From Candidatus Eiseniibacteriota bacterium (GTDB lineage: Bacteria > Eisenbacteria > RBG-16-71-46), in NCBI GenBank assembly GCA_041483195.1, contig JBGPFC010000036.1:1-38021 (forward strand): a stretch of DNA of 38,021 nt, written 5' to 3'. The notes beneath the pieces are model-generated. The model did no database searches. It was not told the DNA's origin and was given only the letters and a program-made list of their open reading frames with translations. Of the stretch, positions 1 through 25,616 are shown one piece after another. Numbering within the stretch: position 1 is the first letter of the stretch; every line of letters starts with the position of its first letter. Made by a program: the position numbers and the translations under genes.

Positions 1-127
1 AGTAGCCTGAAGGTCGAGCTTCGCATCTTCACGTGGTTCGTTCCCTGCCATGGTGCCCCTCCTCGGGTTGAGAGGGGTGGGGACTTTTCAATGACCACAG
101 GTGGAGAACTTTGCATGGCCGATGACA
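1..127 (-). mobile_element. IS21-family element, left end, with the first 17 codons of istA (ATG at 51, runs off the window)
   Basis: The minus strand from 127 reads TGTCATCGGCCATGCAAAGTTCTCCACCTGTGGTCATTGAAAAGTCCCCACC. This is a TG start with two internal repeats, typical of IS21 ends. It is followed by RBS GAGGAGG and ATG GCA GGG AAC... The IS5 transposase is cut exactly at this point. Confidence 0.75.
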
Positions 128-592
128 GGCTTCGAGGGTGGAGATGACCAGGCGGACTTCAGCTGGCGAAGCACTGGCCACGTCGACGGCGAGAGGAAGA
201 CCATGGCCGTCCGCAACGGCCATGAGCTTTGAGCCCTTTCCGCGCTTGGTCGGGCCCACACAAAGGCCCCCTTTTTCGCCCCCACGAAGGTGGCGTCGAT
301 GAAGCACTCGGCCAGATCGAGTTTCCCTCGGTCGCGCAGGTCCCTCGCCAGCGCGTGCAGGATCTTGCCGAACACGCCTGCGCACCCACTGCTGGAAGCG
401 GCGATGACACGTCGCCGGGGAGGGATACCGATCGGGCACGTCCTGCCAGGGCGCGCCGGTGCGCAACACCCACAGAATGCCGTTGAGGACCTCGCGATCG
501 TCGCGCCACGGCCGGCCACGGCCATCGGCTCGCCGACGCGGCCTGGGGATCAGCGGTTCGAGTACGGCCCATTGTTCGTCCTTGAGTTCCAT
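128..592 (-). pseudogene. IS5-family transposase, frameshifted and truncated
   Basis: It has the DUF4096-like N-terminus ([26 protein letters not shown]), and [11 protein letters not shown] in a second frame after an apparent 2-nt loss near 380. A slippery A5G5 run lies at 267-276, then [17 protein letters not shown], ending at the IS21 terminus. Confidence 0.85.
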
Positions 593-667
593 CGCTCCCT
601 CCTCGACGCCATCCATGACGCCGTCGGGGAGCAGCTTACTCCGTCACGCGGCTTGTGAGACAGGTTC
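128..667 (-). mobile_element. IS5-family element (programmed-frameshift type), interrupted by IS21
   Basis: The terminus GAACCTGTCTCACAA lies next to CTAG (667-670). A transposase gene follows. Confidence 0.75.
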
Positions 668-731
668 TAGCAGGTCACCCGCCGCAAGGGCGCTGCCGTA
701 CTCCGTTCCCTGGAGGGTCCAGAAAATCGTG

Positions 732-760
732 TTGATTTAGGTAGTCCCCCGTCATAGGGT
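732..760 (+). promoter_or_regulatory. Putative sigma70 promoter of the radical SAM operon
   Basis: TTGATT-17 nt-TAGGGT. Confidence 0.45.
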
Positions 761-913
761 TCGGGCATTAGTCATGCTCGTGCCGCCTCGGGAAAGTGGT
801 CGCCCCACCAGTATCGCCCAACTTACCGGATGACGGCGCGCGCCCTCGACCAAGATCATGGATCCTCAGAGCGCATCGGACGCCGCGTCCATGCCCTGGT
901 AAGGAGTCACCAC

Positions 914-2101
914 ATGACTGCAGCGACTCTTCCTATCCTCCCAGTAGTGCCAATGCTCCAGACGCCTGAGGGCCTTGGCCAAGGCTCAACCTACGTGATG
1001 TGGGGCGACCCCGAAACACGCAAACTCGAGACCTACCACCTTATCCTCGCGCCCACGCACGCGTGCAACCTGCGTTGCGCGCACTGCTACCTTCCGGATC
1101 ACGCGCGTAACCTCCTTCCCGAAGCCGTCGCCGTCCGTCTTGTGCAGGAGTGGGCTTCGATCGTTCTGGCAGAGCGAGATCCGTACCGCGGAATCTTTCA
1201 CGTCAAGGGAGGAGAGCCGTTCGTCGTCCCCTATCTCGATCGCATCGCCCGGCGCGTAATCGAGACGCGAGCACTGCAGTTCATGCTGACCACCAACGGC
1301 ACGATTCTGACCTCAACTACGCGAGGGCTGCTAGCGTCTTGGCAGGAAGCGCTTGGTGGGTACCTCACCATCGTCGTCTCGCTCGACGGAGCAACCGCAC
1401 GCACGCACGATTTGCTTCGAGGCGAAGGTTCGTACGACAGGACGATTCCCTTTCTGGAATATCTGCGCGGCCTCGGTGTGAAGACGTATCTAAACTGTGT
1501 TCTCCATCAATTGAACCTCGACGACGTACCTGCCTTCCTCGACCTCGCCCAGTCGCTTGGCGTGTCGCAAGTCAATTTCCTACCACTCGTTCCCAAGGGG
1601 TACGGCGCCGGCATACGCACGACTCAACTGCCGCACCTAGTGATTCACGAGCGGCTCCGCCGGGTCTATGAGTCCGTGGGGCACGCGACGCGACTGCTCC
1701 TCGCCGGCAGCCTGCCTCACATCGAGGGAGGTGAACAGGCGGGACGCTTCGCAGCCGCATTCGAATGCGTCGCCGCTTACCGTGGCCTCTTCTACATCAG
1801 GCCTTCGGGTTCCGTGCATTCGTGTCCAAATCTTGAGGATGATCGACACGCGGTAGGCAATGTGACCACCGAGGCACTCTACGAGATTCATCAGCGGCTG
1901 GGGACGCTCTACCAATCGCTTCATCTCGGCGTCCCCAACGACCGGTACTTATGCTCGGGCGAGCGCCTGCGCTATTCCGATGCCGCAGATGGTTCGAATC
2001 TGCGTTCGCTTCGTGTCCTGCAGCAAGATATCTTGGCTCGAACGTCAACTTCGCCGGCTTTGGGCCGTCGTGTGGCGTTCTGCGTCAGCCGGAATTGGTG
2101 A
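914..2101 (+). CDS. Radical SAM protein with twitch/SPASM-like C-terminal domain
   Basis: Contains CNLRCAHC, GGEP, TTNG and SLDG. C-terminal CVAAYRGLFYIRPSGSVHSCP..GNV plus two further Cys. RBS AAGGAG (901-906) favours ATG 914 over 830. Confidence 0.9.
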   Translation: MTAATLPILPVVPMLQTPEGLGQGSTYVMWGDPETRKLETYHLILAPTHACNLRCAHCYLPDHARNLLPEAVAVRLVQEWASIVLAERDPYRGIFHVKGGEPFVVPYLDRIARRVIETRALQFMLTTNGTILTSTTRGLLASWQEALGGYLTIVVSLDGATARTHDLLRGEGSYDRTIPFLEYLRGLGVKTYLNCVLHQLNLDDVPAFLDLAQSLGVSQVNFLPLVPKGYGAGIRTTQLPHLVIHERLRRVYESVGHATRLLLAGSLPHIEGGEQAGRFAAAFECVAAYRGLFYIRPSGSVHSCPNLEDDRHAVGNVTTEALYEIHQRLGTLYQSLHLGVPNDRYLCSGERLRYSDAADGSNLRSLRVLQQDILARTSTSPALGRRVAFCVSRNW

Positions 2102-2126
2102 ACCCGAGCGAGCACCGCATTCTGAC

Positions 2127-3050
2127 ATGACGGCATCGGCCGCATTCGCTGCTCCTGCGCCTGGCGCCGGCCAACCGGCCGCCCCTCGCGGGCCCAAGGG
2201 TTCAGTGCCCCGCAGCACCAAGGGCGATGATCGCGCCTTCGGGATTGGCATCGCACTCCTAGTGGGGGCCGGCGCTCACCTGCTCCGCCCTATATGGGTC
2301 GATCCCGCTCTCGCGTACGCCTATTCATGGCTCTTGGTAGGCCTGGCGTCCGCCGTAGGAAGCTTGGCGGCTTTGTTCAATGAACTCATAGACCGGGGTC
2401 TTTTAAATGTCTCCGCGAAGTGCCGCTGGGCTGGACGATTCGCCCAGTTCTTTGTCCCCGCTTCCGCGGTGATTCTCTTCGCCGCTATCCTTTGGTATTT
2501 CCTACTCAATCGGCAGGAGCAACTTAACTTCTCGAATGAGCACACATCCGTATCGCTGGAGAGCGTGTTCAGGTGCCTCACCTGGACCCTTCTCGGACTC
2601 TGTTTCGCTGTCTGGCTTTGTGACGAGCTCATTCTTGACCGGTCGACTCACCCGGCAAGTGACTCCGTGCTCTGGCTCGACTTCATGGTGCTGGGAGCAG
2701 TCTTCGTTACTCATGTCGCCGCGACGTTCTACGACGGTGTCGCGAACGCGAACGAAAGGTTCGTGCAGGGCTATTTCGCTGGGGCTGTGGCGTTCGAAGT
2801 TATCATCGCGAATCTTCTCTTTGATCCCGCCCCGGTTCAGGATCGAATTGGGTTCCTCTCCGGCGAGAATCCCGGCCAGGCCCGTCAACGTCGGCAAGGG
2901 TTGGTGATCTCGTTCCTCGTGATCATGGTTCTTATCATGGTCCTCATTCTTGTTAGGAGTAGAATCCTTCATCCAAGTTCCGGCCACGCGCCTGGACCTG
3001 TCACTGAGTCCTCGATGCTGAGCCCTCGGGCACTCGGAAAACAATTGTGA
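2127..3050 (+). CDS. Polytopic membrane protein of unknown function
   Basis: About 7 hydrophobic segments. It fills the gap between the radical SAM and SBP genes. Start uncertain. Confidence 0.7.
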   Translation: MTASAAFAAPAPGAGQPAAPRGPKGSVPRSTKGDDRAFGIGIALLVGAGAHLLRPIWVDPALAYAYSWLLVGLASAVGSLAALFNELIDRGLLNVSAKCRWAGRFAQFFVPASAVILFAAILWYFLLNRQEQLNFSNEHTSVSLESVFRCLTWTLLGLCFAVWLCDELILDRSTHPASDSVLWLDFMVLGAVFVTHVAATFYDGVANANERFVQGYFAGAVAFEVIIANLLFDPAPVQDRIGFLSGENPGQARQRRQGLVISFLVIMVLIMVLILVRSRILHPSSGHAPGPVTESSMLSPRALGKQL

Positions 3051-3057
3051 GGTAAAT

Positions 3058-4098
3058 ATGCTTCCAAGGCCTGCGCGAATCTTCAGCATCATCTTGCTTG
3101 TCGCAGCTCTGGTTGGCGTCAACGTCTGGGGGTGCCAGGCCAAGAAGGCGAGGATCCTCCAAACTCGCAACATCAAGGTCGGCATCGCTACATGGGCAGG
3201 TTTCGGCATTGGGTTCATCGCCAAGGAGCAGGGTTACTTCCGGGGCCTGAACGTCGACCTCAAGATCCTCGACGATACAAACGCTCGTCAGAATGCGTTC
3301 CGCTCAGGCGAGTTGGACGTCCGCGTCTCCTCAGCAGATGTCTTCTTGCAAGAGCGCGGATCCGGGCTGTCGGGGACGATCTTCCTCGTTACAGACGCTT
3401 CTTTCGGGGGAGACGGGATCATCGCTCGACGAGGCATTGATTCGCTTTCACAGCTCCGTGGCAAGCGGATCGCCTTCGCAAGAGCTACGCCCTCTCATTT
3501 CCTCTTGGCAATCGCCCTAGCCGCGCACGGACTGAAGCTTCGGGATATCAAGCTGGCGCTCGTCGAGGACCCCACGACAGCTGCGCAGGCGCTTCGCAGC
3601 GGCAGGGTCGACGCGGCCGTGACCTGGGAGCCGTTCTTGACCCAGCTTGCGAGTGAGCACAAAGGGAAGATCCTGTGCACCAGCCGCGACTTTCCAGTGA
3701 TTGTGGACGTGCTCGTCGGCTCCTCAAAGTTCCTGGCCAATACGGCTGCTGCAGAGGTATTCTGCGCCGGATGGCTGAAGGCCGTGGACTTCGCGAAGGC
3801 CAATCCCGACTCGGCGGCCGCAATTCTCTCGCGAGGGCTGAAAGTGCCGGTGGCAGACGTGTCGGGAATGCTCTCGTCGCTCCAACTGGCCGACGCGGGC
3901 CGGAACGCGTACTACCTGGGAGACGCCACGACAGAGCCCGCCATCACTCGGATTCTGCACAGCGCGAGCGCCGTCTGGGCCCAGGACAGCATCCCCACCG
4001 TCACCTTCGTCCCCTTGCCCTCGGTAGATCTCTTCACAAACCGCTACTTGCGCTCCGATCATCCGGCGGCATCCACATCGGCCCCCACAGGACGGTAA
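3058..4098 (+). CDS. ABC transporter substrate-binding protein, SsuA/THI5/NMT1 family
   Basis: Signal/lipoprotein-like N-terminus, WAGFG..AKEQGYF, GGDGIIAR, LRGKRIA, VDAAVTWEPF; RBS GAGGT. Confidence 0.9.
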   Translation: MLPRPARIFSIILLVAALVGVNVWGCQAKKARILQTRNIKVGIATWAGFGIGFIAKEQGYFRGLNVDLKILDDTNARQNAFRSGELDVRVSSADVFLQERGSGLSGTIFLVTDASFGGDGIIARRGIDSLSQLRGKRIAFARATPSHFLLAIALAAHGLKLRDIKLALVEDPTTAAQALRSGRVDAAVTWEPFLTQLASEHKGKILCTSRDFPVIVDVLVGSSKFLANTAAAEVFCAGWLKAVDFAKANPDSAAAILSRGLKVPVADVSGMLSSLQLADAGRNAYYLGDATTEPAITRILHSASAVWAQDSIPTVTFVPLPSVDLFTNRYLRSDHPAASTSAPTGR

Positions 4099-5004
4099 GT
4101 GCGCGATGGTCGTCCGACCGCGGAGCGGCCTCGCCTTGATGCCAGCTTCCAAACTTGCTCGACTTTCAGGCCGCCCCGCACGGCGGGCCGGTGGACTTGT
4201 GATTGTGCGGCCGCTTTCGTGCTAACGGCTCGCCATCCGGCAACCCAGCGGCTAGCAGTCATCGTCTTGGCGCTGCTGGCCATCGGGCTCTGGGCCGCCA
4301 TTCACACGCGCGGATCTGCGCCGAGTCTGATGGTGAGTCCGCTGGAGGTTGCTCGGGCCTTCGGGGCGATGCTCGCGTCAGGGCAACTCACTTCGGCGGT
4401 TCTCATTAGCTCACGGCGTGTATTCATCGGATTTGCATTCGCGCTAGCGATCGCACTTCCCCTGGGCGTGATCTTCGGGTACCACCGGTCGCTTGGCGCG
4501 ACCTTCCTTCCGATCAATAGCTTCCTGCGGTATATCCCCCCGACGGCGTTTACTGGCCTCTTGATTCTGCGGTTTGGGATCGATGAGGCGTTCAAGTACT
4601 CGATTGTCTTCGTGGGTGTGGTCTTCTTCATGATTCAGATGATCGCCGACGCCGTGTCTTCTGTCGACCGTCACTATGTCGAGATGGCGCGCGTTTCCGG
4701 TTTCACGCGCTGGTCCATCCTGAGCCGCGTTGTCCTTCCCCTCAGCGCGCCTTCGATCGTGGACGCGATCCGGGTGAATCTTGGAGCGGCTTGGACATTC
4801 TTGGTCGTCGCGGAACTCGTCGGCTCCGATAGCGGATTGGGCTTCCTGCTCGCTGTCAGCCAGCGCTTCTTCCGTGTCGCCGACATGTACGCCGTGATTG
4901 TCACCTTCGGAATTATCGGCTACGTGATCGACTCGGTGGTCTCCATGCTCACTCTCTCAGCGTTTCGTTGGCATCGCATCCGGCTGCGCAGCGAGCATGC
5001 CTAG
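4099..5004 (+). CDS. ABC transporter permease, NitT/TauT (SsuC-like); true start may be GTG 4219
   Basis: LRYIPP, EAA-like loop EMARVSG, AWTFLVVAELVGSDSGLG. Confidence 0.88.
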   Translation: MRDGRPTAERPRLDASFQTCSTFRPPRTAGRWTCDCAAAFVLTARHPATQRLAVIVLALLAIGLWAAIHTRGSAPSLMVSPLEVARAFGAMLASGQLTSAVLISSRRVFIGFAFALAIALPLGVIFGYHRSLGATFLPINSFLRYIPPTAFTGLLILRFGIDEAFKYSIVFVGVVFFMIQMIADAVSSVDRHYVEMARVSGFTRWSILSRVVLPLSAPSIVDAIRVNLGAAWTFLVVAELVGSDSGLGFLLAVSQRFFRVADMYAVIVTFGIIGYVIDSVVSMLTLSAFRWHRIRLRSEHA

Positions 5005-5013
5005 GGGCCTCGA

Positions 5014-5763
5014 ATGAGCGAGATCGTGCGGGCGAACGGAATCTCCTTCTCGTACCCGAGCCGCATGGTGATCCGGGACACATCGATTCAGCTTGGCACT
5101 GGGGAAATCGTGGCCTTGATGGGGCCTTCCGGATGCGGCAAGTCGACTTTGTTGCGATTGCTCGGGGGTCTGGAAAGGCCCGACGCCGGCACGATCGACC
5201 CATCGCCGGCCAAGCTGGCACGGGAAGCCAGCCTCGGTTATCTATTCCAAGATCACGATGCGTTTCCCTGGTTGACGGTCGCGCAGAACTTGAGGAGCGG
5301 CAGTGGAATGCCGCCGTACCCATCGAGCGAATCCGTTACGGCTCTGCTTGAGAAGCTCGGGCTCCGGGGAACCGAACAGTTGTTTCCTACGCAGCTATCC
5401 GGGGGCATGAGAAAGCGGCTCGGGCTCGGACGGGTCCTCGTTCGGAGACCGCGCTTGCTGCTGCTGGACGAACCTTTCTCGTCCCTGGATCTGGCTACCA
5501 AGTCGGAGATCTACGTGATTCTGGAGAGCCTCGTCGGGGAGCTTCAATGCGCGGTGCTTCTGGTGACTCACGATCTCGCTGAATCCGTTCTGCTGGCCGA
5601 CCGGATCCTTGCGAATCGAGGGCAGGTGCTGAACCTCAATGGCCCGGGCTACGACGTCGCACTGCCCAGACCTCGAAGTCTCAGTGTACTGAAGGACGCC
5701 GGAGCTGCCGCCATCGTGGAGTTCCTTGAGCGAACATTGCTCGCACAGCCTCGAGCACAATGA
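5014..5763 (+). CDS. ABC transporter ATP-binding protein (SsuB/TauB-like)
   Basis: GPSGCGKS, LSGGM, LLLLDEPF, VTHD. Confidence 0.95.
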   Translation: MSEIVRANGISFSYPSRMVIRDTSIQLGTGEIVALMGPSGCGKSTLLRLLGGLERPDAGTIDPSPAKLAREASLGYLFQDHDAFPWLTVAQNLRSGSGMPPYPSSESVTALLEKLGLRGTEQLFPTQLSGGMRKRLGLGRVLVRRPRLLLLDEPFSSLDLATKSEIYVILESLVGELQCAVLLVTHDLAESVLLADRILANRGQVLNLNGPGYDVALPRPRSLSVLKDAGAAAIVEFLERTLLAQPRAQ

Positions 5764-6072
5764 GCACCACCTCAGACTAGATTTAGAGCGCGGCTCGATC
5801 TGGGCCGGCCTCAATGCCTGGGTCTTCGCCGTGCCCGAGGATCACGAATCTGAGGCTTGGTTGTGACCGGGCGCTGCAGAAGGCGAGTCACAAGGCGGGT
5901 CGGCACGGTGATAGGATGCATTGTGGGTACTTTGCCAATTCGAACAACGCCGCGAGGCTGCGCACGACGATGCGTGCGGAGTTCGAATCGTTCGGCTCGG
6001 TCGCGTCGCCAACAGATCGCGTTTCCTGCAGGTACGCCGCGACTCAACCTAGTTTAAGCAGGGGGACGGAAA

Positions 6073-8409
6073 GTGAACTTCGCGACGCTCGAGCGCATGG
6101 TAAGCGACGGAGACATGAGCCGTGACGGCTTCCGGTACCTGCTCGGGTGTCGAGGGGAATGCGAGTGGCTTGACTACAAGGAAAGCCTCCGGTTGGAGCA
6201 CGATGCCGAATTGTGCGACTTCGCCCGAGACGCCCTGGCACTCAAGAACGTAGGTGGCGGGTACATCCTCGTCGGGGTCAAGGATAAGACGTGGGAACAG
6301 GTCGGCCTCACTCAACAGTTTGCATACGACTCCAAGCTTCTGCGCGACAAGATTCAGCGAGCGACGGGTGTTCAGCTGGAACTTGATATCGTTTGCCACG
6401 ATCAGGAGGGTGACGGGACCTCGAAGCGATTCGCGCTGATTCATGTGCGGTCCAGCCGGAAGCGCACCAAGCGACGCAGCCCTACTCTCATTGCAAAGGA
6501 CTTCTGCGCGAGCAAGCCCTTCGGAGTGAGAAGAGGAGAGATTTACGTCCGAAAGGGCGACGCGACCATTCGGGTTACCACGCAGGATGAACTTGAAGAT
6601 CTGCTTGAGCGACTCGAGTCCCAAGCCGACGAAGATGCGATCCAACAGGAGGGTGCGCCGACTCCATTCGCCGTCGAGACGGGCCTGTATAGACTTTTGG
6701 ATCCCGGATTTGAACGATTTGTCGGCCGGCACGAACTCAAAGGCCGCCTTCTTTCCGCGGTACTCGGAGACCCAAGGATCTGGATCATCAACGTTCATGG
6801 TCCGGGAGGCGTTGGAAAGTCCGCTCTCGTAAACTGGGCCGCGCACACGCTCTATCGTGAGCGTCACTTTGAAGCCATTCTTCAATTGACGGCGAAGGAG
6901 ACGATTCTCACTGACGCAGGCATCAAGAGGTTTTCACGGTCGCTATACTCGTTAGAAAACCTCCTCGACCACCTGCTCCTTCTCTTTGAGGAGGATCCGA
7001 ACCAGGAGCTAAACGCCAAGAAGGAGCTTGCGACGAAACTGCTGTCAGCCTGGCAATCGCTCATAATCCTCGACAACATGGAGACCGTTTCGGACGGTCG
7101 CATTCTCGCCTTCGTCCAGGGCCTGCCTCCCGACTCAAAGGCACGTGTTCTTCTGACCAGCCGAACCAAGACCGGTGGTTGGGAACTGCCACTTGCGGTT
7201 ACGGAGATGACGGCCGACGAGACCCTTGAGTTCATCAAGCTGAAGTCAGAGGAATTGAAAGTCGCTTTCCCCTTGGACCCGATGACGGTTCAGCGCGTGG
7301 CGGAGGTGAGCGGTGGTCTTCCGCTTGCGACCCAGTGGATCGTGGGCCAATACAAGAAGAGCCAGCGGCTCGACCTCGTTCTCGATAGTGCGAGGAGCAA
7401 GGACTCGCCTGTTCTCGAGTTCAGCTTCCGGAACATTTGGGGACTGCTCACCCCTGAGGCTAGGACAACGCTGGCGATGATGAGCATCTTCGAGGGACCA
7501 ACGACGGCACACGAACTTGTCGTTGCGAGCGAAATGGCTCCCGAGATGATCGAGCGGGCAATTGCGGACTTGGTTGACGTAACGCTCGTGAATCGCTCGC
7601 TGCCTCGCGATGACGGAAGAGTGCTCTTGTCGGCGTTGCCAATCACGTTGTCCTTCGCGCGCAATGAGCTGGCTGGGATGGGCGATCTTGAGGTGCGGTC
7701 TCGGCAACGCGTCCAGAGATTTAATGAGCAGATGGAGCTTCAGGCGTTTGAAATCGCGCGGTTCAAGGGCGAGTTCCAGCGTTACGGGATCGACACGCCG
7801 AACGAGAAACGCGCCGCTATTCTCTGCCGTCGTGCGGAGTCCGAGATGTTTTCAGGAAATACTGAGAGCGCAGAAGTCCTATTCGCTCAGGCGCGTGAAC
7901 TTGCTCCGCAGAGCGCATATGTATTGGCGCGATCCGCCAGCTATGAACTTGCACGCAACAGAGTAGGAGTGGCGCTCGAAAGAGCAGCGGAGGCATGCGG
8001 TCGCGCCAAAAAGAAGACAGGTGCCCTCTGCTACAGCGTCAAGGCCAGAGTTCTCGACGTGCAGCGTGATCGTGGAGGACGAGTCGAGGCACTGGGCGAG
8101 GCCCTGAAGTTCGACCCGAACGACACGATCCTCCAGCACCAATACGGGGTGGCGCTGAGCAGGGTGGGTCTCGAACGCGAGGCTGTTGAGCAATTCACGC
8201 GCATCATCGCTGTCGAAGAATTGAAGGTGCCGCCGCGCGAGACACTGGTCATGGCGCTGACGACGCGTATCATCAACCTACAAAGGTTGGGCCGCACGGC
8301 CGAGGCTATGCAGGACCTCCAACGAGCGCGTGACGTTGTAGCCCAGTACCCTCACCTTTCCCACGCCGCAAGAAAACTCGAGGAGATTGAAGTTGGTGCG
8401 TCCGGGTAG
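6073..8409 (+). CDS. Schlafen/AlbA_2 - STAND (NB-ARC-like) NTPase - wHTH - TPR protein; candidate anti-phage NLR
   Basis: AlbA_2 motifs ECEWLDYKE and ALKNVGGGYILVGVKD. STAND motifs FVGR, GPGGVGKS, LIILDNME, LLTSR and GGLPLA. C-terminal TPR-like helices (ALKFDPND..YGVAL). Confidence 0.88.
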   Translation: MNFATLERMVSDGDMSRDGFRYLLGCRGECEWLDYKESLRLEHDAELCDFARDALALKNVGGGYILVGVKDKTWEQVGLTQQFAYDSKLLRDKIQRATGVQLELDIVCHDQEGDGTSKRFALIHVRSSRKRTKRRSPTLIAKDFCASKPFGVRRGEIYVRKGDATIRVTTQDELEDLLERLESQADEDAIQQEGAPTPFAVETGLYRLLDPGFERFVGRHELKGRLLSAVLGDPRIWIINVHGPGGVGKSALVNWAAHTLYRERHFEAILQLTAKETILTDAGIKRFSRSLYSLENLLDHLLLLFEEDPNQELNAKKELATKLLSAWQSLIILDNMETVSDGRILAFVQGLPPDSKARVLLTSRTKTGGWELPLAVTEMTADETLEFIKLKSEELKVAFPLDPMTVQRVAEVSGGLPLATQWIVGQYKKSQRLDLVLDSARSKDSPVLEFSFRNIWGLLTPEARTTLAMMSIFEGPTTAHELVVASEMAPEMIERAIADLVDVTLVNRSLPRDDGRVLLSALPITLSFARNELAGMGDLEVRSRQRVQRFNEQMELQAFEIARFKGEFQRYGIDTPNEKRAAILCRRAESEMFSGNTESAEVLFAQARELAPQSAYVLARSASYELARNRVGVALERAAEACGRAKKKTGALCYSVKARVLDVQRDRGGRVEALGEALKFDPNDTILQHQYGVALSRVGLEREAVEQFTRIIAVEELKVPPRETLVMALTTRIINLQRLGRTAEAMQDLQRARDVVAQYPHLSHAARKLEEIEVGASG

Positions 8410-8479
8410 AACCTAGTCTGTTATCGTGCTACCGGCGGACCAGCCAGCCGGGCGGGCCCGCCGGAATGCCGTCTGGACA

Positions 8480-8767
8480 CTGCAATTGCCTCCTACACGC
8501 CTGGCGAATCAAGAGCTACCCAACCGTGCCGCCGGACCCGCGAGTAGGACCTCGAGGTCCTGCAATTGCCCCCTGCACGCCCGGGCGAATCGGGGGCTAT
8601 CCAATCGCACCTCCGAATACTGTGGTAGGTTCCAGTAAGTCATTGCACGGCGGTCGAATCAGAGTTGTTCAAACCGCTGCCCAGGGGCGACGCAGACGCT
8701 TCCGGTGGACCCGCTCAATCTTCCAATTGACCCCTGCACGCCGGTTCGAATCCGGGTGCCGCCTCCA
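8480..8767 (+). repeat. Four degenerate direct repeats, consensus CAATTGnnnCCTGCACGCCnGnnCGAATC
   Basis: Copies start at 8483, 8563, 8633 (most diverged) and 8724. Copies 1-3 continue with related tails (AAGAGCTACCCAACCG / GGGGGCTATCCAATCG / AGAGTTGTTCAAACCG). Confidence 0.75.
8741..8767 (+). other. tRNA-Cys 3' fragment; probable att site of a tRNA-integrated island
   Basis: CCGGTTCGAATCCGGGTGCCGCCTCCA comprises the T arm, acceptor 3' strand TGCCGCC, U discriminator and CCA. No matching 5' half lies upstream. Confidence 0.8.
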
Positions 8768-8853
8768 ATTTTCTCCCGGATGGCCTTGTGCGCGGGTGCC
8801 CTGGCCGGGTCGGGGGGATGTCCCAATCAACCATCGCCATCAAGGGAGAGCTG

Positions 8854-9612
8854 ATGAAGCGACTGCTGGCCGCGCTGGTGTGCGCGATGGTGCTGCTTGG
8901 CCCCTCAGGCGTACGAGCCGGCGGGCTTTACCTCCGCGGTGAGGCCGGATGGTCGATCGCTGCCCCTGCGAACCTGCGGGACAAGGAGATGGACCCCAAC
9001 AAGCCTACGTTCATCAACTCAGACAATGGGCTCGGCGAATTCGACGAGATCGGACACTCGCCGCTACTCGCAGTCGGAGTCGGCACTCGCGTTCTGGACA
9101 AGTTGCGGGTCGATCTCACCGCCGGCTATCGAGGCGGCTTTCGGCTCGACGGCACGGGCCCAAGCTCCATCGCGTCGACCACGAGCGCGGACATCGTCTC
9201 ACTTGCGCTCATGGCGAACGCCTGCTGGGACTTTCCGCCGACGGGTCCGGTGCGGCCGTATCTCGGAGTGGGGCTGGGCTGGGCGCACAACACCATTTCA
9301 AACATCCTGGAACGACGAGCCTCGGTCCCGAGATACGACCTGCCTGACGGTTCGACCAACAATCTTGCATGGCAACTGAGCGCGGGCGTCGGTTGGAAGC
9401 TCGCGAACAATTTCACGCTCGATCTCGGATACCGCTATCTCGACGCGGGCAAGATCGAGTCCGACGCCGGCAATGTGGTACGCAGGACCAACGGCACTAC
9501 CCTTCCGACAGCCGGCGTGAAAGGTCGCCTGGCCGCGCACGAACCGGTCGTCGACCTTCGCTTTGATCCGCCCCCAACTTCCTGGAGCAGCGGGACTGTC
9601 CCAATGAGCTAG
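8854..9612 (+). pseudogene. Outer-membrane beta-barrel protein (OMP_b-brl/Opa-like), C-terminus disrupted by IS3
   Basis: Signal peptide MKRLLAALV.., RPYLGVGLGWA, LAWQLSAGVG, LDLGYRYLDAG. The native end ...DLRFSL* can be rebuilt with 10804-10813. Confidence 0.8.
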
Positions 9613-9651
9613 CTTTGGGGCCTCCTGAACCGTCAAGGAGGAGGACCCAGG

Positions 9652-9918
9652 ATGAAGACGAGCAAGTTCACGGTCGAGCAGATCGCCCACGCCCTGAAGC
9701 GCGTGGAGGGCGGGGTGGTGGTCGGCGAGGTGTGCCGCGAGCTGGGCATCACCGAGACGACGTTCTACCGCTGGAAGCGGAAGTTCGGCGGCATCTCCTC
9801 GCCGGAGTTGCGCGAGCTGCGGCAACTGCGGGAGGAGAACCGGCGCCTGAAAACCGTGGTCGCCGACCTGACCCTGGATCGGACGATGCTGCAGGAGGCG
9901 CTCCGAAAAAAGTGGTAA
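9652..9918 (+). CDS. IS3 transposase OrfA (HTH)
   Basis: MKTSKFTVEQI..CRELGITETTFYRWKRKFGG; RBS GGAGG; A6G slippery site at 9906-9912. Confidence 0.95.
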   Translation: MKTSKFTVEQIAHALKRVEGGVVVGEVCRELGITETTFYRWKRKFGGISSPELRELRQLREENRRLKTVVADLTLDRTMLQEALRKKW

Positions 9919-10793
9919 GGCCGGTCGAGCGCCGCGCCGTGACCCGCTGGATGCAGGAGGCCTATCGCGTGAGTCTGCGCAAGGCCTGCCGCGCCTCGGC
10001 AACGGCGATGTCCTCGATGCAGTACCGCCCGGTCCGGCCGGATCAGTCCCCGCTGCGCCAGAGGATCAAGGAGATCGCGACGAACCGCGTGAGCTACGGG
10101 TATCGTCGCGTGCAGGTGCTGCTCCGTCGTGAGGGCTGGAAGGTGAACGCCAAGCGGACGTACCGGTTGTATCGCGAGGAAGGGCTCTGTCTGCGGTCGA
10201 AACGGCCCCAGCGTCGCCGCAGCGCGGTGCGTCGCCAGGAGCGGACCGCGGCGATCGGGAGCAACCAACTCTGGGCGATGGACTTCATGAGCGATGCGCT
10301 GGCGGACGGCAGGAAGCTGCGGGTGTTGACGGTGCTCGACACGTTCACGCGCGAGTGCGTCGCGCTCGAGGTCGGCGGGACGTTCGGCGGCACGGACGTC
10401 GCTCGCGTGCTGACGCGCGCGGGCGTGCAACGCGGGTTGCCGACGGCGATTCACGTCGACAACGGGACGGAGTTCACGTCGAAGGCGTTCGACCACTGGG
10501 CGTACCTGAACCAGGTGCGGCTCGACTTCAGCCGGCCCGGCAAGCCGACGGACAATGCGTTCATCGAAAGCTTCAACGCCCAGGTCCGGCGTGAGTGCTT
10601 ATCGCAATACTACTTTTCGTCGCTCATCGACGCCCGGGTGGTGCTCGATGCCTGGCGGGACGAGTACAACAACCGCCGGCCCCACGGGAGTTTGGGGCAG
10701 AGGACTCCGGCCGAGTATCGTGCCGAGGTCGAAGCAGCCGAGGTTCCCGAGCAGCTCGCATTGAGCGAGCCCGAATGCTCCAGCGTCGGGTAG
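9915..10793 (+). CDS. IS3 transposase OrfB (DDE integrase core), fused to OrfA by -1 frameshift
   Basis: YGYRR, WAMDF, DNGTEF, PGKPTDNAFIESFN, YNNRRPHGSLG. Confidence 0.93.
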   Translation, partial: VRPVERRAVTRWMQEAYRVSLRKACRASATAMSSMQYRPVRPDQSPLRQRIKEIATNRVSYGYRRVQVLLRREGWKVNAKRTYRLYREEGLCLRSKRPQRRRSAVRRQERTAAIGSNQLWAMDFMSDALADGRKLRVLTVLDTFTRECVALEVGGTFGGTDVARVLTRAGVQRGLPTAIHVDNGTEFTSKAFDHWAYLNQVRLDFSRPGKPTDNAFIESFNAQVRRECLSQYYFSSLIDARVVLDAWRDEYNNRRPHGSLGQRTPAEYRAEVEAAEVPEQLALSEPECSSVG

Positions 10794-10967
10794 CGGACCA
10801 CTTCAGCCTGTAGCGGGACGCGGGGCGGACCCGGATCCGGGGGCTGCCGGTCATGCGGCCCGCCCCAAAGATTCGGGTTGAAGTCCCGGCGGGCGCTCCT
10901 GCTACACTCTTCGCTCCCCTTTCCCCGTCGCCACCATCATCGTCATCCACCCCGCTCGGGAGCCGCC

Positions 10968-11930
10968 ATGCTCGCTCGCTCTGCCCTCGGAACGCTCGCG
11001 TCCCTCGTCATTCTCGCCGCCATCTGCGTCGCACCCGCGCGGGCCGCGACGCTTCAAGTCTACGCCACCAACATCTCGGCCGGCGGCGCCGACCTCGAGT
11101 TCGATGGCGCCGGCAACATGTACGTTACGGGCGGCAGCGGCGGCCTCGGGAAGCTCTACAAAGTCGCCCCCGGCGGAGGCGCCGCGACGCCGATGACGCT
11201 CACCGGCCCGGCGCTCTTCCAGCCGTGGGGGCTCGCGACGAGCCCGGGCGGGACCCTGTACCTGGTGGATCGAGGCGATCCGACGGTCGCCAACTCGGGA
11301 AAGATCTACTCGGTGTCGCCGACCGGCGTGCTGACGTTATTCAAAGGCAGCCTCGCCGGACCGTTCTCCATCGTCTTCGATCCGGCAGGTAATCTCTATG
11401 TCGGTCTCGTCAGCCAGAACAAGGTGGCGAAGATCACGCCGGGCGGCGTGATGACCAACTACGCGACCGGTCTCGGCGTCGCGGGCGAGCAGGTGATGCA
11501 GCTCTCCATCGACGCGTCCGGCAATATCTACGCGGGCGTCGAGCAGGACATGTACAAGATCGCTCCCGGCGGCTCGCCGGTCACCAAGGTGATCAGCGGC
11601 GGGCTCTCACAGGCGATGGGGCACGTTCGTTGGGCCAGCGACAACTTCATCGTCGCGACGTTCGGGTTCCATCAGCTCAAGCATTGGTCCGCGGCCTACG
11701 GCCTCCACAACCTGCTCAATCCCGCGGCAGGGAGCTGCGCGGTCGGCCTTCTCTCCGACGGTGTCTCGCCCGGCGGCGCGAGCATGAGCCAGCCCACCAG
11801 CATGCGGCTCCTCGCGGGCACCGTCTACGTCGCCGACCAGGGCTGCCACCAGGTTCGGGCGTTCGACGTCGGCGACATCACGCCGGCTCGTGGTCGCACC
11901 TGGGGGCAGTTGAAGACGCTCTATCGTTAG
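10968..11930 (+). CDS. Secreted beta-propeller (NHL/Vgb-like) protein with C-terminal TWGxxKxxYR tail
   Basis: Signal peptide ending APARA; repeats FDGAGNMYV, FDPAGNLYV, IDASGNIYA; RBS GGAG; extended -10 TGcTACACT at 10900-10908. Confidence 0.85.
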   Translation: MLARSALGTLASLVILAAICVAPARAATLQVYATNISAGGADLEFDGAGNMYVTGGSGGLGKLYKVAPGGGAATPMTLTGPALFQPWGLATSPGGTLYLVDRGDPTVANSGKIYSVSPTGVLTLFKGSLAGPFSIVFDPAGNLYVGLVSQNKVAKITPGGVMTNYATGLGVAGEQVMQLSIDASGNIYAGVEQDMYKIAPGGSPVTKVISGGLSQAMGHVRWASDNFIVATFGFHQLKHWSAAYGLHNLLNPAAGSCAVGLLSDGVSPGGASMSQPTSMRLLAGTVYVADQGCHQVRAFDVGDITPARGRTWGQLKTLYR

Positions 11931-13084: not shown

Positions 13085-13323
13085 CGCGGCGCATCTCCAT
13101 CGGGCTCGCGCAGGTGGCTGAAGCCCGAGTCTTCGCTCAGCAGCTGCTCGTCGAGCCAGCGGTCGAGGATGCTCATCCGGAATCGCCACTCCTTGCCCAG
13201 CTTGACCGCGGGAATGCGCCGCTCCGCGGCCCACTTGTAAATGGTCTGGGGTCTCAGGCGGAGGTAATGCGCGACCTCCTCGAGCGTGAGGATCTCGTGG
13301 TCGGGCTTGTTCGAACCACTCAT
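13081..13323 (-). CDS. HTH_17 excisionase/BldC-like DNA-binding protein
   Basis: ILTLEEVAHYLRLRPQTIYKWAAERRIPAVKLGKEWRF; ATGA overlaps on both sides. Confidence 0.92.
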   Translation of the reverse strand: MSGSNKPDHEILTLEEVAHYLRLRPQTIYKWAAERRIPAVKLGKEWRFRMSILDRWLDEQLLSEDSGFSHLREPDGDAPR

Positions 13324-14144: not shown

Positions 14145-14168
14145 CGCGCGTCCCTCCTCTCGGGACCG

Positions 14169-14240
14169 ATTATGGTGGGGCAGCGTTGGCGCCGAGTCAA
14201 CGTTTATTATTGTTTGTTGCTGTTTGCCTATGTTCATGAC
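14169..14240 (-). promoter_or_regulatory. Promoter with four 10-bp-phased AAC repeats
   Basis: Minus strand TGAACATAGG CAAACAGCAA CAAACAATAA TAAACGTTGA, overlapping TTGACT-20 nt-CATAAT. Confidence 0.6.
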
Positions 14241-14299
14241 CCGCGCCGGGCAGGCGAGTGCCGCATCATCGAACGGTGCCCTCCGCTACCATCACCCGC

Positions 14300-15633: not shown

Positions 15634-15778
15634 CGGTGCCCCCAGGGCAAGGGTGGGGTAGGAGCGGTGGGATGCCATGCACCGCACTACGGCGGGGCCC
15701 GGCGCGGGGTTGCCGTCGGTCGTCTGGGGCCGCGGGTGGTTTAGTGGCCCGAATCGGGGCCAGAGGCAGCCCCGCCCC

Positions 15779-17044: not shown

Positions 17045-17204
17045 GGGCTCGAGCGGAACATGTCGGGGGGGTATCGGCCGGGCGGGGCCGGGACGTTCAC
17101 CGCCACGCGATCCCGCGACGCCGCGAGCCTTGGCCAATCTCGATTGACTCTCCATCCCCGCGCGCCCGATATTGCTCGCCGGACCCCAGCCCCGGAGGAT
17201 GCTC

Positions 17205-17813: not shown

Positions 17814-17842
17814 CGCGCGTGGTGCGCGGCCGCGTGCGGCCG

Positions 17843-23150: not shown

Positions 23151-25608
<2,458 letters not shown>

Positions 25609-25616
<8 letters not shown>

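Follow-up and report, generated by a model that had tools for sequence, protein, structure and literature searches.

What does a protein that couples a Schlafen/AlbA_2 domain to a STAND ATPase and a TPR array do for a bacterium, and is such a coupling new? The question is raised by a single gene of a Candidatus Eiseniibacteriota bacterium, found in the window (the whole 38,021-nt stretch of DNA analysed). The first-pass annotation had answered it with a phage-triggered RNase causing abortive infection, carried on a chassis like those of Avs and bacterial NLR proteins. Here, the gene, its family and its surroundings are examined computationally, and the likely function is weighed against three other explanations.

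Domain architecture

The open reading frame at 6073..8409 (+) starts with GTG and encodes a 778-aa Schlafen/AlbA_2–NB-ARC–TPR protein (P0001), with which full-length homologues (748–819 aa) align from residue 1. An ORF overlapping the gene start (5814–6125, +) lacks a family match and was treated as spurious. The head of P0001 is a Schlafen/AlbA_2 nuclease-type domain (aa 29–167; 6157..6573, +), detected by Pfam SLFN_AlbA_2 (PF04326) with E 7e-11 and 43.1 bits against a cut-off of 25.3, over profile positions 1–116 of 118. A six-frame family search of the organism's own genome returned this single AlbA_2 copy (6157–6573, 47.5 bits). Residues 29–37 read E-C-E-W-L-D-Y-K-E, the AlbA_2 acidic motif noted in the first-pass annotation, and they include the predicted catalytic triad E29-x4-D34-x-K36 (6157..6180, +). 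In alignments of 120 homologues, each residue of the triad is found in 120/120 sequences, and D71 (6283..6285, +; within G68-V-K-D71-K), the predicted third acidic catalytic residue, in 119/120.

An interdomain stretch of 47 residues (168–214) leads into a STAND module of the NB-ARC (AP-ATPase) clade, which comprises the NBD, a helical domain and a winged helix (aa ~215–530; 6715..7662, +) as judged from Pfam, VIA-align and Foldseek. The Pfam NB-ARC match itself spans aa 232–425 (E 5e-10, 39.6 bits against a cut-off of 23.5), and Pfam AAA_16, AAA_22, nSTAND1 and ATPase_2 match the protein as well. The STAND motifs had been described as complete, and each of them was recovered in 119–120 of the 120 homologues: the Walker A P-loop G243-P-G-G-V-G-K249-S (aa 243–250; 6799..6822, +), with G243, G245, G246, G248 and K249 in 120/120; the Walker B motif hhhhDNxE (aa 330–337; 7060..7083, +), with L333, D334, N335 and E337 in 120/120; T362-S363-R364 (TSR, sensor-1 arginine), in 120/120; and G-G-L-P-L-A, the GLPL motif of NB-ARC (aa 414–419; 7312..7329, +), in 119–120/120.

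The C-terminal TPR array, the predicted sensor, occupies aa 576–775 (7798..8397, +) in approximately six helix pairs. It is recognized by Pfam (TPR_2 at 581–613, plus weaker TPR matches from 581 on) and by the helices of the structure model, in agreement with the TPR C-terminus first proposed. Residues S590, P612, A622, A634, L674, H689, Q690, G692, V693, S696 and A704 of this part are invariant in the alignment. No HTH domain was found in the protein besides the NB-ARC winged helix. The layout thus reads as tripartite, with an effector-type head at the N-terminus, a STAND ATPase in the middle and C-terminal repeats as the predicted sensor.

Predicted structure and fold relatives

The AF2 model of the whole protein has a mean pLDDT of 84.9, with 75–91 in the AlbA_2 part. 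Residues 576–758 form 12 paired helices, i.e., about six TPRs, at pLDDT 85–96. For residues 203–551, the best fold matches (VIA-align, Z 22–25) are plant CNL/TNL resistosomes, CED-4 and Apaf-1, all of the NB-ARC/AP-ATPase clade. The closest is a wheat CNL (9h2l; Z 25.0, rmsd 3.2, 315 residues aligned), followed by WRR4A (9qlv, Z 23.0) and CED-4 (2a5y, Z 22.8), and the top three NLR/CED-4 superpositions span 307–318 residues at rmsd 3.2. Walker A and B, the TSR sensor and GLPL are common to P0001 and these proteins. Sequence identity is 13–19%, and in place of the Schlafen head and TPRs of P0001 the plant and animal proteins have a coiled-coil, TIR or CARD head and an LRR or WD40 sensor. Matches to the PDB by Foldseek include PH0952, NRC4, Apaf-1, CED-4, Avs3 (8dgc, rank 11) and MalT (8bob), with SAMD9 (9zjs) at rank 49 and a TM of 0.15. 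TPR proteins match residues 547–778 at Z 15–18 by VIA-align, which is generic for repeats.

Whole-model searches (Foldseek against the PDB, VIA-align wide) returned STAND and TPR matches only and were uninformative on the head; likewise, a full-length profile run against PDB sequences retrieved TPR proteins and the STAND protein PH0952, with no Schlafen among them. A profile of the N-terminal part did retrieve SLFN11, SLFN14, SLFN5, "Schlafen 8" and CbCash chains, marginally (best E 0.0011). In the corresponding alignments, the motif G-G-G-Y-x3-G-V-x-D-K containing D71 falls on SLFN11 chain residues 264–305 (G-G-G-Y-L-F-I-G-V-D-D-K), and E29/D34/K36 correspond, by alignment offset, to E17/D22/K24 of CbCash, where tRNA cleavage is reported to be abolished by E17Q, D22N and K24A (PMC13462974). 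The prokaryotic Schlafen motif is given as Ex4(E/D)xK in a study in which two such proteins protected E. coli from phages (PMC13056530). Modelled alone for 11 sequences (the window and homologue loci), the N-terminal domain reached a mean pLDDT of 42, too low for use. A homodimer prediction on residues 1–200, which asked whether two single-lobe Schlafen domains pair, gave scores of 0.13 and 0.15, the mark being 0.42, and speaks neither for nor against pairing.

Family conservation and exchange of heads

Homologues at 52–89% identity occur in at least eight phyla; those at 52–73% come from Nitrospirota, Verrucomicrobiota-type MAGs, Kiritimatiellia, Kryptoniota, Krumholzibacteria, a delta-proteobacterial MAG and Actinomadura. 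Among 8000 candidates scored there were 334 matches, and 656 cluster representatives fell at E ≤ 1e-30; representatives of 566–593 aa lacking the TPRs exist beside the ~775-aa form. For a gene of defence, identities of 55–89% across phyla are high. Averaged over the alignment, identity to the query residue is 0.61 in the TPR part, 0.64 in AlbA_2 and 0.69 in the NBD, and since the TPRs are conserved like the other parts, the sensor gives no sign of arms-race diversification. Phage records contained no match to the protein, and plasmid records only distant NB-ARC–TPR proteins (21–28% identity), the head being absent from all of them. A search for longer fused relatives (1363–3890 aa) found none, which is weak evidence. 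Source names of some homologues are "predicted transcriptional regulator" or "RNA-binding domain-containing protein".

The AlbA_2-type head of P0001 is present in 63 of the best 150 proteins among 1.84 billion representatives, and Ex4[DE]xK in 58 of these 63, the remaining five being N-terminally cut. To compare heads, 56 full-length proteins were picked that have only the NB-ARC–TPR part in common. Their heads fall into seven groups, the HEPN_Swt1-like group accounting for 35; 19 heads have no Pfam match, one is SIR2_2 and one is a different AlbA_2. The HEPN_Swt1 match in five members scanned was E 3e-9 in one and 0.003–0.004 in two, with none in the other two. Because homologous NB-ARC–TPR chassis bear other heads, the N-terminal position appears to act as an effector slot whose occupants are exchanged.

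These data bear on the reading of P0001 as a STAND-type regulator like MalT or AfsR, in which AlbA_2 would bind nucleic acid without cleaving it and the ATPase–TPR part would sense a metabolite or peptide and thereby govern transcription or the fate of RNA. AlbA_2 has long been annotated as a DNA/RNA-binding domain, and two of the source names above point the same way, as do MalT among the Foldseek matches, Rap-type TPR sensors, which bind peptides, at Z ~15–16, and a transporter operon upstream in the window. Mere binding, however, would not need the E-D-K triad and D71, which are (near-)invariant in 120 homologues; the protein has no HTH of its own beyond the winged helix and no conserved neighbour to control, and the heads on related chassis, HEPN and SIR2, are toxic enzymes rather than DNA binders. 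We therefore regard a regulatory role as highly improbable.

Locus and horizontal acquisition

The gene lies in a foreign segment of low GC (0.603; 1..8770), delimited by composition and by comparison with five relatives. The left end of this segment runs off the contig; besides the gene, it holds an ABC transporter, a radical SAM gene, a fragment of IS5 type and one unknown ORF. DNA similarity to the five relatives is lacking over 1–8700, save three stretches of 63–87 nt, and is back from ~8701; in 40 relatives, the gene was not found at E ≤ 1e-10. The gene itself has a GC of 0.581, the genome one of 0.700 (sd 0.026 in gene-size windows), and 0/3997 windows of that size are as low, so the low GC remarked on in the first-pass annotation is borne out. 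So is its statement that the gene stands alone: a 309-nt spacer separates it from the upstream ABC ATPase gene, no gene intervenes before the repeats downstream, and no partner recurs at the homologue loci (see below).

Three att-like direct repeats follow the gene. The first (8478..8535, +; repeat families D1 and D2) resembles the 3′ half of tRNA-Cys with an anticodon-loop-like CTGCAAT, the second (8558..8615, +) also aligns with the tRNA-Cys of relatives, and the third (8719..8767, +) ends in 27 nt of tRNA-Cys 3′ end, 8741–8767 being identical to the final 27 nt of a real tRNA-Cys(GCA) in a same-genus genome. The repeats were rejected as tRNA genes and read as att remnants, since ARAGORN found no intact tRNA in the window and the weak tRNA-like fold at 8685–8764 scores below the gathering score of its Rfam model (tRNA-Sec, 21 bits, E 0.13). 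Neither an intact tRNA-Cys nor the left end of the island is present in this assembly, and no integrase lies in the window. An 86-nt "tRNA-Cys" called by ARAGORN on contig C23 was discarded as the att partner; it lies in GC-rich, coding-looking sequence and has nothing in common with the tRNA-Cys of relatives. With the repeats at 8478–8767, the tRNA-Cys 3′ match and the return of similarity at ~8701, the gene is indeed the last before the att site, and computation shows it to be horizontally acquired, probably on an island integrated at tRNA-Cys.

A recently transferred gene may be intact in appearance and yet unexpressed, or lack its trigger in the new host. For such a silent passenger speak the GC, 12 points under that of the genome, a homologue elsewhere that is fragmented (L012), and a promoter/terminator scan of 5600–8900 that gave nothing above the shuffled expectation, no promoter-like site being found upstream. 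The promoter scan was limited to sigma-70 consensus sites, which says little for this host, and against the passenger stand 778 open codons in which all invariant family residues are kept. On balance, this explanation seems improbable.

Neighbourhoods of homologues

No specific defence gene is found among the neighbours in the window. PADLOC matches there the radical SAM gene (pVip), the ABC ATPase (mad3) and a Ser/Thr kinase (PD-T4-6), each of them generically. Elsewhere the picture differs: specific PADLOC matches, RM, Hma, Abi or OLD-like among them, lie within 10 kb at 7/11 homologue loci. The gene sits between HmaA and HmaB with an integrase adjoining (L005), near type II and type IV restriction genes (L009), or near a type IIG RM gene with HKD-Snf2, TIR-like and OLD-like genes (L004). 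PDC-S14 is directly upstream in L008 and Abi_alpha in L012, where the homologue itself is broken into fragments; PDC-M19 is nearby in L003, and ZorD-like and SoFic-like genes in L006. At 4/11 loci specific defence genes are absent, L002 being flanked by housekeeping genes. The homologue adjoins an integrase in L007, and in Actinomadura (L011) it resides on a conjugative element with TraG/T4CP and a primase.

The first-pass annotation had named enrichment of homologues in defence neighbourhoods as a check. At the ORF level, PADLOC matches 30/187 non-target neighbour ORFs versus 3/99 control ORFs (Fisher p = 7e-4; p = 0.009 after seven generic matches are dropped), in a small sample whose control consists of seven random 20-kb pieces of one genome, that of the window. 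Counted per locus, any PADLOC match occurs at 9/11 loci versus 3/7 control pieces, which is not significant (p = 0.14). A syntenic block is common to L003 and L004 only, and no conserved partner gene was found across the 12 loci compared, which argues for a self-contained module.

The same STAND-controlled RNase could halt growth or kill on a conflict or stress cue other than phage, for instance when a plasmid or ICE enters, in kin discrimination, or after damage. Roles of this kind have been suggested for the "apoptosis-like" NTPase conflict systems found in bacteria whose life styles are complex. It accords with the conjugative element in Actinomadura, with the integrases beside L005 and L007, with the lack of defence genes at the window locus, and with a TPR sensor so unusually conserved across phyla that a universal cellular or mobile-element cue fits it better than a fast-evolving phage protein; Schlafen-linked systems are also described as enriched in multicellular prokaryotes (bioRxiv 10.64898/2026.10.19.760177). 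Yet the strongest neighbours of homologues are restriction, Hma and Abi genes, and for each part of the protein the characterised relatives are antiphage: Schlafens of prokaryotes (PMC13056530), NACHT proteins of bacteria (10.1101/2022.07.19.500537) and Avs3 (8dgc). We consider a non-phage cue unlikely and favour the phage-triggered reading.

Relation to known Schlafen and STAND systems

In Avs1–4, one polypeptide joins an effector at the N-terminus, which is exchangeable within a family, to a STAND ATPase and a TPR-like sensor at the C-terminus. These proteins carry long sensors and DNA-nuclease or other heads. P0001 is far smaller: the chain in 8dgc ("Avs3 bound to phage PhiV-1 terminase") has 2028 residues.

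Closer in its head is Avs9, which, like P0001, places an AlbA_2 domain with acidic catalytic-type residues on a STAND NTPase with TPRs. In the report describing it (Nat Ecol Evol 2025, PMC12680541), Avs9 is toxic when expressed in E. coli, the active-site mutation D45N abolishes the toxicity, and an association with defence genes is noted. It is defined there by the SAMD9/9L composition minus SAM, AlbA_2-SIR2-P-loop-TPR-OB, with >1300 residues aligned. P0001, in contrast, lacks SIR2 and any OB or CSD match, has 778 aa, an NB-ARC-like NTPase and TPR helices to residue 775; because SIR2 and the OB fold are absent and its length is half, it is not Avs9 as so defined, and that assignment was rejected.

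Kibby et al. (bioRxiv 10.1101/2022.07.19.500537) set out a three-part logic in which an effector, an NTPase and repeats are combined, and their bNACHT34 resembles P0001 in having an N-terminal Schlafen RNase domain, called uncharacterised in that report, on an NLR-related STAND protein. The NTPase of bNACHT34 is a NACHT, whereas that of P0001 is an NB-ARC with GLPL; a classification as bNACHT was rejected, as Pfam gave no NACHT match for P0001 at E ≤ 1.

Prokaryotic Schlafens have been sorted into classes, of which pSlfn15 (17 members, defence score 0.94; Perez Taboada et al., Nat Microbiol 2026, PMC13056530) is defined by the joint presence, in a single polypeptide, of a pSlfn domain and a member of the Pfam P-loop_NTPase clan, a composition that P0001 has. 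In Supplementary Table 2 of that work, pSlfn15 is a heterogeneous bin by domain composition and not a clade. Most of the members given there have the NTPase in front, and one has a NACHT, whereas in P0001 the NTPase lies behind the Schlafen head; a single member combines SLFN_AlbA_2 with NB-ARC in the order of P0001. The gene of that member has 1743 nt (~580 aa) with no TPR annotated in the source, as against ~775 aa plus TPRs in the P0001 family.

RorSlfn5 and CbCash have the same nuclease motif as P0001 and are described as sensor-activated and oligomeric (a hexamer; a dodecamer to filament), cutting the tRNA anticodon arm or T-loop (PMC13056530; PMC13462974). Their sensors differ from that of P0001: one is an Ig-like domain that recognises the tail assembly chaperone of T5, the other a cA4-binding Csx15 domain, and neither protein as described has an ATPase switch.

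PADLOC v2 (PADLOC-DB v2.0.0), one of the comparisons proposed at the outset, holds 0 families that match P0001 at E ≤ 1, and no Avs or NLR model does so; there is no exact match to a described system. The first-pass suggestion that the effector is absent from the characterised Avs types has been overtaken, given that Schlafen heads on STAND proteins are in print (bNACHT34, Avs9, pSlfn15, as reported in the sources above). The pairing has been described in bacteria since 2022, and the kind is not new. What the comparison leaves is a ~775-aa NB-ARC/TPR Schlafen family with no PADLOC model, for which nuclease and defence roles are probable predictions.

Proposed mechanism and significance

We conclude that P0001 is probably the product of a single-gene defence module of the NLR/Avs-like kind, a tRNA/rRNA nuclease that a trigger activates, that oligomerises and that brings about abortive infection. 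The idea of a trigger-activated Schlafen RNase on an Avs/NLR-like STAND–TPR chassis, acting by abortive infection, fits all the computed data. The architecture, the invariance of catalytic and ATPase residues, the exchange of heads, the contexts of homologues and the horizontal acquisition are computed; what sets the protein off, whether it oligomerises, which RNA it cuts and how the cell fares are inferred as follows. At rest, the protein would be kept monomeric and inactive by the NB-ARC ATPase and the short TPR array. The switch would be released once the TPR array binds a trigger, for which a conserved protein of phages or mobile elements is the likeliest candidate and a nucleic acid a possible one. 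ATP-dependent oligomerisation of the NB-ARC modules would then bring the N-terminal Schlafen/AlbA_2 domains together, and their Mg-dependent E-D-K active sites (E29, D34 and K36, with D71 helping) would cut tRNA and possibly rRNA. Translation would halt, and the infected cell would yield no phage, through abortive infection or growth arrest.

A bolder proposal, which we hold to be possible but rather doubtful, is that P0001 is the founding example of a distinct, widely transferred bacterial "Schlafen resistosome" family of the NB-ARC clade. Instead of a fast-evolving antigen, its compact six-TPR sensor would recognise one universal cue, be it a fold conserved among phage proteins, the end of a nucleic acid or a signal derived from tRNA, and HEPN, SIR2 and several unknown heads would serve as interchangeable outputs. 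Among bacterial proteins, it would then come closest to the CNL-type receptors of plants, but with an RNase as its output.

If the nuclease reading is true, the gene would join the immune modules common to bacteria and eukaryotes, uniting within 778 aa a Schlafen tRNase, as in human antiviral defence, an NB-ARC switch, as in plant NLRs and Apaf-1/CED-4, and a TPR sensor. Common in metagenomes and spread by horizontal transfer, the family has no model in PADLOC v2 and will thus be overlooked by annotation pipelines built on that library. Its small, unusually conserved sensor may offer a handy system for studying recognition by a minimal STAND receptor and the switching of Schlafen domains by oligomerisation, and the unknown heads of the sister chassis are candidate new effector domains.

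A Schlafen Head on an NB-ARC-TPR Chassis

The gene under study (6073-8409, + strand) encodes a protein of 778 aa from a GTG start; the alignments of full-length homologues begin at residue 1 and thereby support this start. It lies in a genome of 4.17 Mb (93 contigs, 70% GC), of which the window is one whole contig (C36, 38,021 bp). The AlbA_2-STAND-TPR layout proposed in the first-pass annotation was borne out by Pfam domains and conserved motifs: SLFN_AlbA_2 covers aa 29-167 (E 7e-11, 43.1 bits against a cutoff of 25.3, 116/118 profile positions), NB-ARC covers aa 232-425 (E 5e-10), and weaker TPR matches begin at aa 581. The acidic motif E-C-E-W-L-D-Y-K-E reads exactly as claimed at residues 29-37. 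Beyond the Pfam domains, NCBIfam gave only partial TPR-type matches to this protein, and no model in PADLOC-DB v2, a search specified beforehand, matches it.

A word-indexed search of 5.8 billion protein clusters returned 334 matches at E ≤ 0.001 among 8000 candidates scored. The best 120 of these 334 homologues are 748-819 aa long and share 55-100% identity with the query over 91-100% of its length; a precomputed annotation column lists PF04326 for every one. Their source names say little: hypothetical, TPR repeat, NB-ARC domain-containing, or RNA-binding domain-containing protein, with one "predicted transcriptional regulator". Conservation was read from an alignment of the query with 119 homologues (n = 120), omitting the window's own protein as retrieved by the search (P0002). 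The predicted catalytic triad of E29, D34, and K36 is present in 120/120 sequences at each position, and the predicted third acid, D71, in 119/120; D53, N59, G61-G63, and D163 of the head are likewise found in all 120. The nucleotide-binding motifs are equally constant, comprising Walker A (G243, G245, G246, G248, K249), Walker B (L333, D334, N335, E337), and sensor 1 (T362, S363, R364), each 120/120, and a GLPL motif (G-G-L-P-L-A, 414-419) at 119-120/120.

The arrangement E29-x4-D34-x-K36 fits Ex4(E/D)xK, the motif described for 5,930 prokaryotic Schlafens (PMC13056530). A profile of the N-terminal 215 residues matched solved Schlafens marginally, with SLFN11 at E 0.0011 and SLFN14 at 0.002, followed by the characterized Schlafen tRNase CbCash (0.058), "Schlafen 8" (0.085), and SLFN5 (0.09). 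Query G61-G-G-Y...G68-V-K-D71-K aligns with G-G-G-Y-L-F-I-G-V-D-D-K of SLFN11. Residues 31-72 align with 19-60 of the CbCash chain with no net gap, equating D34 with D22 and K36 with K24, and extension of the same offset equates E29 with E17. In CbCash, this E-D-K triad (E17, D22, K24) is reported to bind Mg and to be needed for tRNA cleavage (PMC13462974).

Exchange of the Head among Chassis Relatives

A profile search of 1.84 billion cluster representatives retrieved 11,277 proteins at E ≤ 0.001, 4,314 at 1e-10, and 656 at 1e-30. The AlbA_2-type head of the query is present in 63 of the 150 best representatives, and 58 of these 63 heads display Ex4[DE]xK within the first 120 residues; the remaining five are fragments or begin too far into the protein. 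AlbA_2-NB-ARC proteins of 566-593 aa that lack TPRs were also found among the representatives. To these can be added 56 full-length proteins picked because their match to the query is confined to the NB-ARC-TPR chassis, starting near residue 215. BLAST sorts their N-terminal parts into seven groups, and Pfam was scanned for 22 proteins (13 head-group representatives and 9 AlbA_2-type relatives). In the largest group (n = 35), HEPN_Swt1-like matches were seen in P0189 (E 3e-9) and, at only 0.003-0.004, in two others; two further members, P0257 and P0226, gave no HEPN match in the Pfam scan. One of the 56 bears a SIR2_2 head (E 2.5e-22) and another a different AlbA_2 head, and four groups, totaling 19 of the 56 proteins, returned no Pfam match. 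Representatives of the other-headed NB-ARC-TPR proteins include P0242, P0233, P0149, P0205, P0188, and P0241. P0242, from the HEPN group, also possesses a C-terminal cold-shock (OB-fold) domain, echoing the C-terminal OB of SAMD9/Avs9.

RNase, NADase-type, and other heads swapped on one chassis are the pattern of the Avs and bacterial NACHT families. Such swapping speaks for the Schlafen domain being the machine's output rather than a handle for binding DNA.

Proposed Mechanism and Nature of the Cue

Standard STAND logic with a Schlafen output is the best-supported reading. A trigger would be bound by the TPR array, upon which the NB-ARC module would exchange nucleotide and oligomerize; the heads thus brought together would cut tRNA or rRNA, and translation would stop. 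This interpretation is in line with all of the comparative evidence and is plausible, if unproven. Three papers on characterized relatives lend it support. Prokaryotic Schlafens protect E. coli; one of them, activated by a phage tail assembly chaperone, is a hexamer as purified and cleaves tRNA in the anticodon arm (PMC13056530). CbCash converts from an inactive dodecamer to a filament and cleaves tRNA at T-loops and at anticodon loops (PMC13462974). Avs9 is lethal to E. coli, and mutation of its AlbA_2 site abolishes the killing (PMC12680541). The core of eukaryotic Schlafens is bilobed, its C-lobe carrying the active site (PMC13056530), whereas the bacterial head is single-lobed, which makes pairing upon oligomerization an attractive way in which the head might be activated.

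Three features fit this reading less smoothly, the first being that the sensor is conserved as much as the enzymatic parts. Mean identity to the query residue across the 120-sequence alignment is 0.61 for the TPRs, 0.64 for AlbA_2, and 0.69 for the nucleotide-binding domain. A patch within the TPR array (H689-Q690-x-G692-V693-x-x-S696) is invariant in the alignment, and the whole protein retains 55-89% identity across phyla. Together, these observations suggest that the sensor may recognize a conserved cue. They also leave room for a target other than phage.

Predicted Structure

An AlphaFold2 model built from the 120-sequence alignment has a mean pLDDT of 84.9 and a pTM of 0.46, from which the single domains can be taken as good and their mutual arrangement as uncertain. 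By VIA-align, residues 203-551 match the wheat CNL 9h2l (Z 25.0, rmsd 3.2, 315 aligned), the TIR-NLR WRR4A (Z 23.0), CED-4 (Z 22.8), and ZAR1 (Z 16.2). With the whole model, Foldseek placed the archaeal STAND-TPR protein PH0952 first, followed by NRC4, Apaf-1, and CED-4, with Avs3 in complex with terminase at rank 11 and human SAMD9 at rank 49. These whole-model match lists are occupied by the STAND and TPR parts and do not represent the head fold; a head-only model, derived from an alignment of 11 sequences, reached a pLDDT of 42. Over residues 547-778, VIA-align returned many TPR proteins at Z 15-18, which for repeats signifies "TPR" only, and the model displays 12 paired helices between 576 and 758, or about six TPRs. 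This sensor is small beside that of Avs3, whose chain comprises 2028 residues.

Defense Genes around Homologues

A scan of one genome per species, using six exact peptide patterns and therefore providing no measure of frequency, located 11 homologue loci at 52-73% identity. The hosts are Nitrospira, three Nitrospirota MAGs, an "Akkermansia" MAG, two Kiritimatiellia, Kryptoniota, a delta-proteobacterial MAG, Krumholzibacteria, and Actinomadura barringtoniae. Neighboring genes were called as longest ORFs, and all 200 were scanned with Pfam and PADLOC at E ≤ 1e-10. Specific defense genes lie less than 10 kb away in 7/11 loci. At L005, HmaA and HmaB flank the homologue, and HmaC, PDC-S11, and an integrase are close by. 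L004 contains HKD-Snf2, PDC-S22, a type IIG RM enzyme, a TIR-like protein, and an NsnB/OLD-like ATPase, while L009 has an Mrr/type IV fragment directly upstream and a type II methylase with two restriction enzymes downstream. The remaining four are L012 (a fragmented homologue directly downstream of Abi_alpha/PDC-S47), L008 (PDC-S14 immediately upstream, with MNT and Zeta toxin in the vicinity), L003 (PDC-M19A/B and a PsyrA-like gene), and L006 (ZorD/DpdE-like helicase, PDC-M38A, SoFic-like). No specific defense gene was found by PADLOC/Pfam within 10 kb at L002 (biotin carboxylase, TenA, ThiD), L007 (integrase, contig end), L010 (4 kb, a PIN gene), or L011 (conjugative element with TraG and primase).

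In a Kiritimatiellia MAG (L005, 6456-20163), the homologue interrupts an Hma (helicase-methylase-ATPase) system, HmaC lying another 5 kb along and the integrase upstream. In the Krumholzibacteria MAG (L012, 10001-11809), it is split into at least three ORF pieces (139, 96, and 136 aa) and looks like a decaying copy.

PADLOC matches account for 30/187 nontarget ORFs at the homologue loci, seven of the 30 being generic (ABC ATPases to mad3, RecG, LigA, primase, dCMP deaminase). In a control of seven 20-kb pieces drawn at random from the genome of the window, called and scanned alike, 3/99 ORFs match, all partially and generically. The enrichment in defense neighborhoods that the first-pass annotation had named as a check was upheld by ORF (Fisher p = 7e-4, or 0.009 without the seven generic matches) and not by locus, where any PADLOC match occurs in 9/11 loci versus 3/7 control pieces (p = 0.14, not significant). 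The enrichment is supportive and not decisive, the control being one genome of another lineage. A block common to L003 and L004 is the only conservation of neighbors across loci, so the gene is a self-contained module.

An Island End at tRNA-Cys

The window itself offers no specific defense gene among the neighbors in the Pfam/PADLOC scan. An IS5-type (DUF4096) transposase fragment (29-616, - strand) opens the contig and is followed by a radical SAM gene (830-2101), an overlapping 356-aa ORF (1980-3050), and the binding protein (NMT1/THI5-like), permease, and ATPase of an ABC transporter (3058-5763). This low-GC cargo (830-5763) has no DNA match in five relatives. The gene has a GC fraction of 0.581, the stretch 1-8770 one of 0.603, and the remainder of the contig 0.683; the lower GC noted at first reading is confirmed, as the 3997 gene-sized windows of the genome include none that low. 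The genome contains no other AlbA_2 gene, and a search of 40 relatives (3 from the genus, 21 from the family, 13 from the order, and 3 from the class; completeness 53-100%) gave no match to this one at E ≤ 1e-10.

Three direct repeats (8478-8535, 8558-8615, and 8719-8767) follow the stop codon. Repeats 1 and 2 contain CTGCAAT, the anticodon loop of tRNA-Cys(GCA), and repeat 3 ends with the T-arm, acceptor strand, and CCA. ARAGORN found no tRNA in the window, and Rfam gave only a sub-threshold tRNA-like fold there. When five relatives were compared with window 1-20000, no DNA similarity was found over 1-8700 save three stretches of 63-87 nt; similarity restarts at ~8701 and at 10290-19999. A same-genus genome has a real tRNA-Cys(GCA) (L028, 4520-4600) whose last 27 nt equal window 8741-8767, with a partial copy 1.3 kb downstream (5901-5975) and then genes syntenic with the right side of the window. 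In a same-family genome, tRNA-Cys (L030, 5654-5728) precedes the same genes. The 5′ part of tRNA-Cys is absent throughout the window's assembly; an 86-nt "tRNA-Cys" called by ARAGORN on another contig (C23, 58678-58763) has surroundings that look coding and no similarity to the relatives' tRNA-Cys, and is probably false.

The repeats and the synteny around the relatives' tRNA-Cys indicate the order of an intact tRNA-Cys (unassembled, to the left), the island, three att remnants, and conserved chromosome. The Schlafen-STAND gene is, as had been proposed, the last island gene before the att remnants, neither a left end nor an integrase being visible in the contig. Three tRNA-Cys-derived remnants are packed into 290 bp (8478-8767), and tRNA-Cys(GCA) has served repeatedly as a site of integration within the genus.

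To the right of the repeats, an outer-membrane beta-barrel gene (8788-9612) and an IS3-type transposase (HTH_21 and rve; 9615-10793, + strand) are followed by ordinary chromosomal genes; part of the IS3 region (10290-10800) matches a relative at 85%. Elsewhere in the window, a second GC dip (24500-26000, 0.585-0.60) coincides with the N-terminal TPR-containing part of a sigma-54 activator gene (23151-25616, - strand) and the adjoining spacer. Two in-frame tandem repeats were also observed: 7.7 copies of a 54-nt unit (26889-27305) inside a hybrid histidine kinase gene (26355-29501), and 13.4 copies of a 147-nt unit (34565-36519) that constitute the FG-GAP repeats of an 890-aa protein (34201-36873, - strand).

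Relation to Described Schlafen-STAND Systems

Schlafen heads on STAND chassis have already been described, which removes part of the novelty initially claimed. The N-terminal domain of bNACHT34 is a Schlafen RNase, and the same source counts Schlafen as one of the NACHT effectors (bioRxiv 10.1101/2022.07.19.500537). Avs9, with the layout AlbA_2-SIR2-P-loop-TPR-OB, is structurally analogous to SAMD9/9L (PMC12680541). A catalogue of prokaryotic Schlafens distinguishes 55 classes, among them pSlfn15, the P-loop NTPase fusions with 17 members (PMC13056530); its Supplementary Table 2 includes one pSlfn15 member with SLFN_AlbA_2 and NB-ARC (gene of 1743 nt) and, as a separate class of 36 members, pSlfn9 or "pSlfn.TPR". 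As those sources define the systems, the 778-aa protein differs from Avs9 in lacking SIR2 and OB and from bNACHT in having an NB-ARC rather than a NACHT NTPase. What stands of the claim is that neither of these two definitions covers the 775-aa family, and a full-text literature search, its coverage stopping short of most subscription journals and preprint supplements, found no paper describing it. The family adds to the described Schlafen-on-STAND kind, and its novelty is modest. It represents a defense-like family that PADLOC v2 misses and an NB-ARC-clade Schlafen receptor with a minimal, conserved sensor, whose sister chassis bear heads without Pfam assignment.
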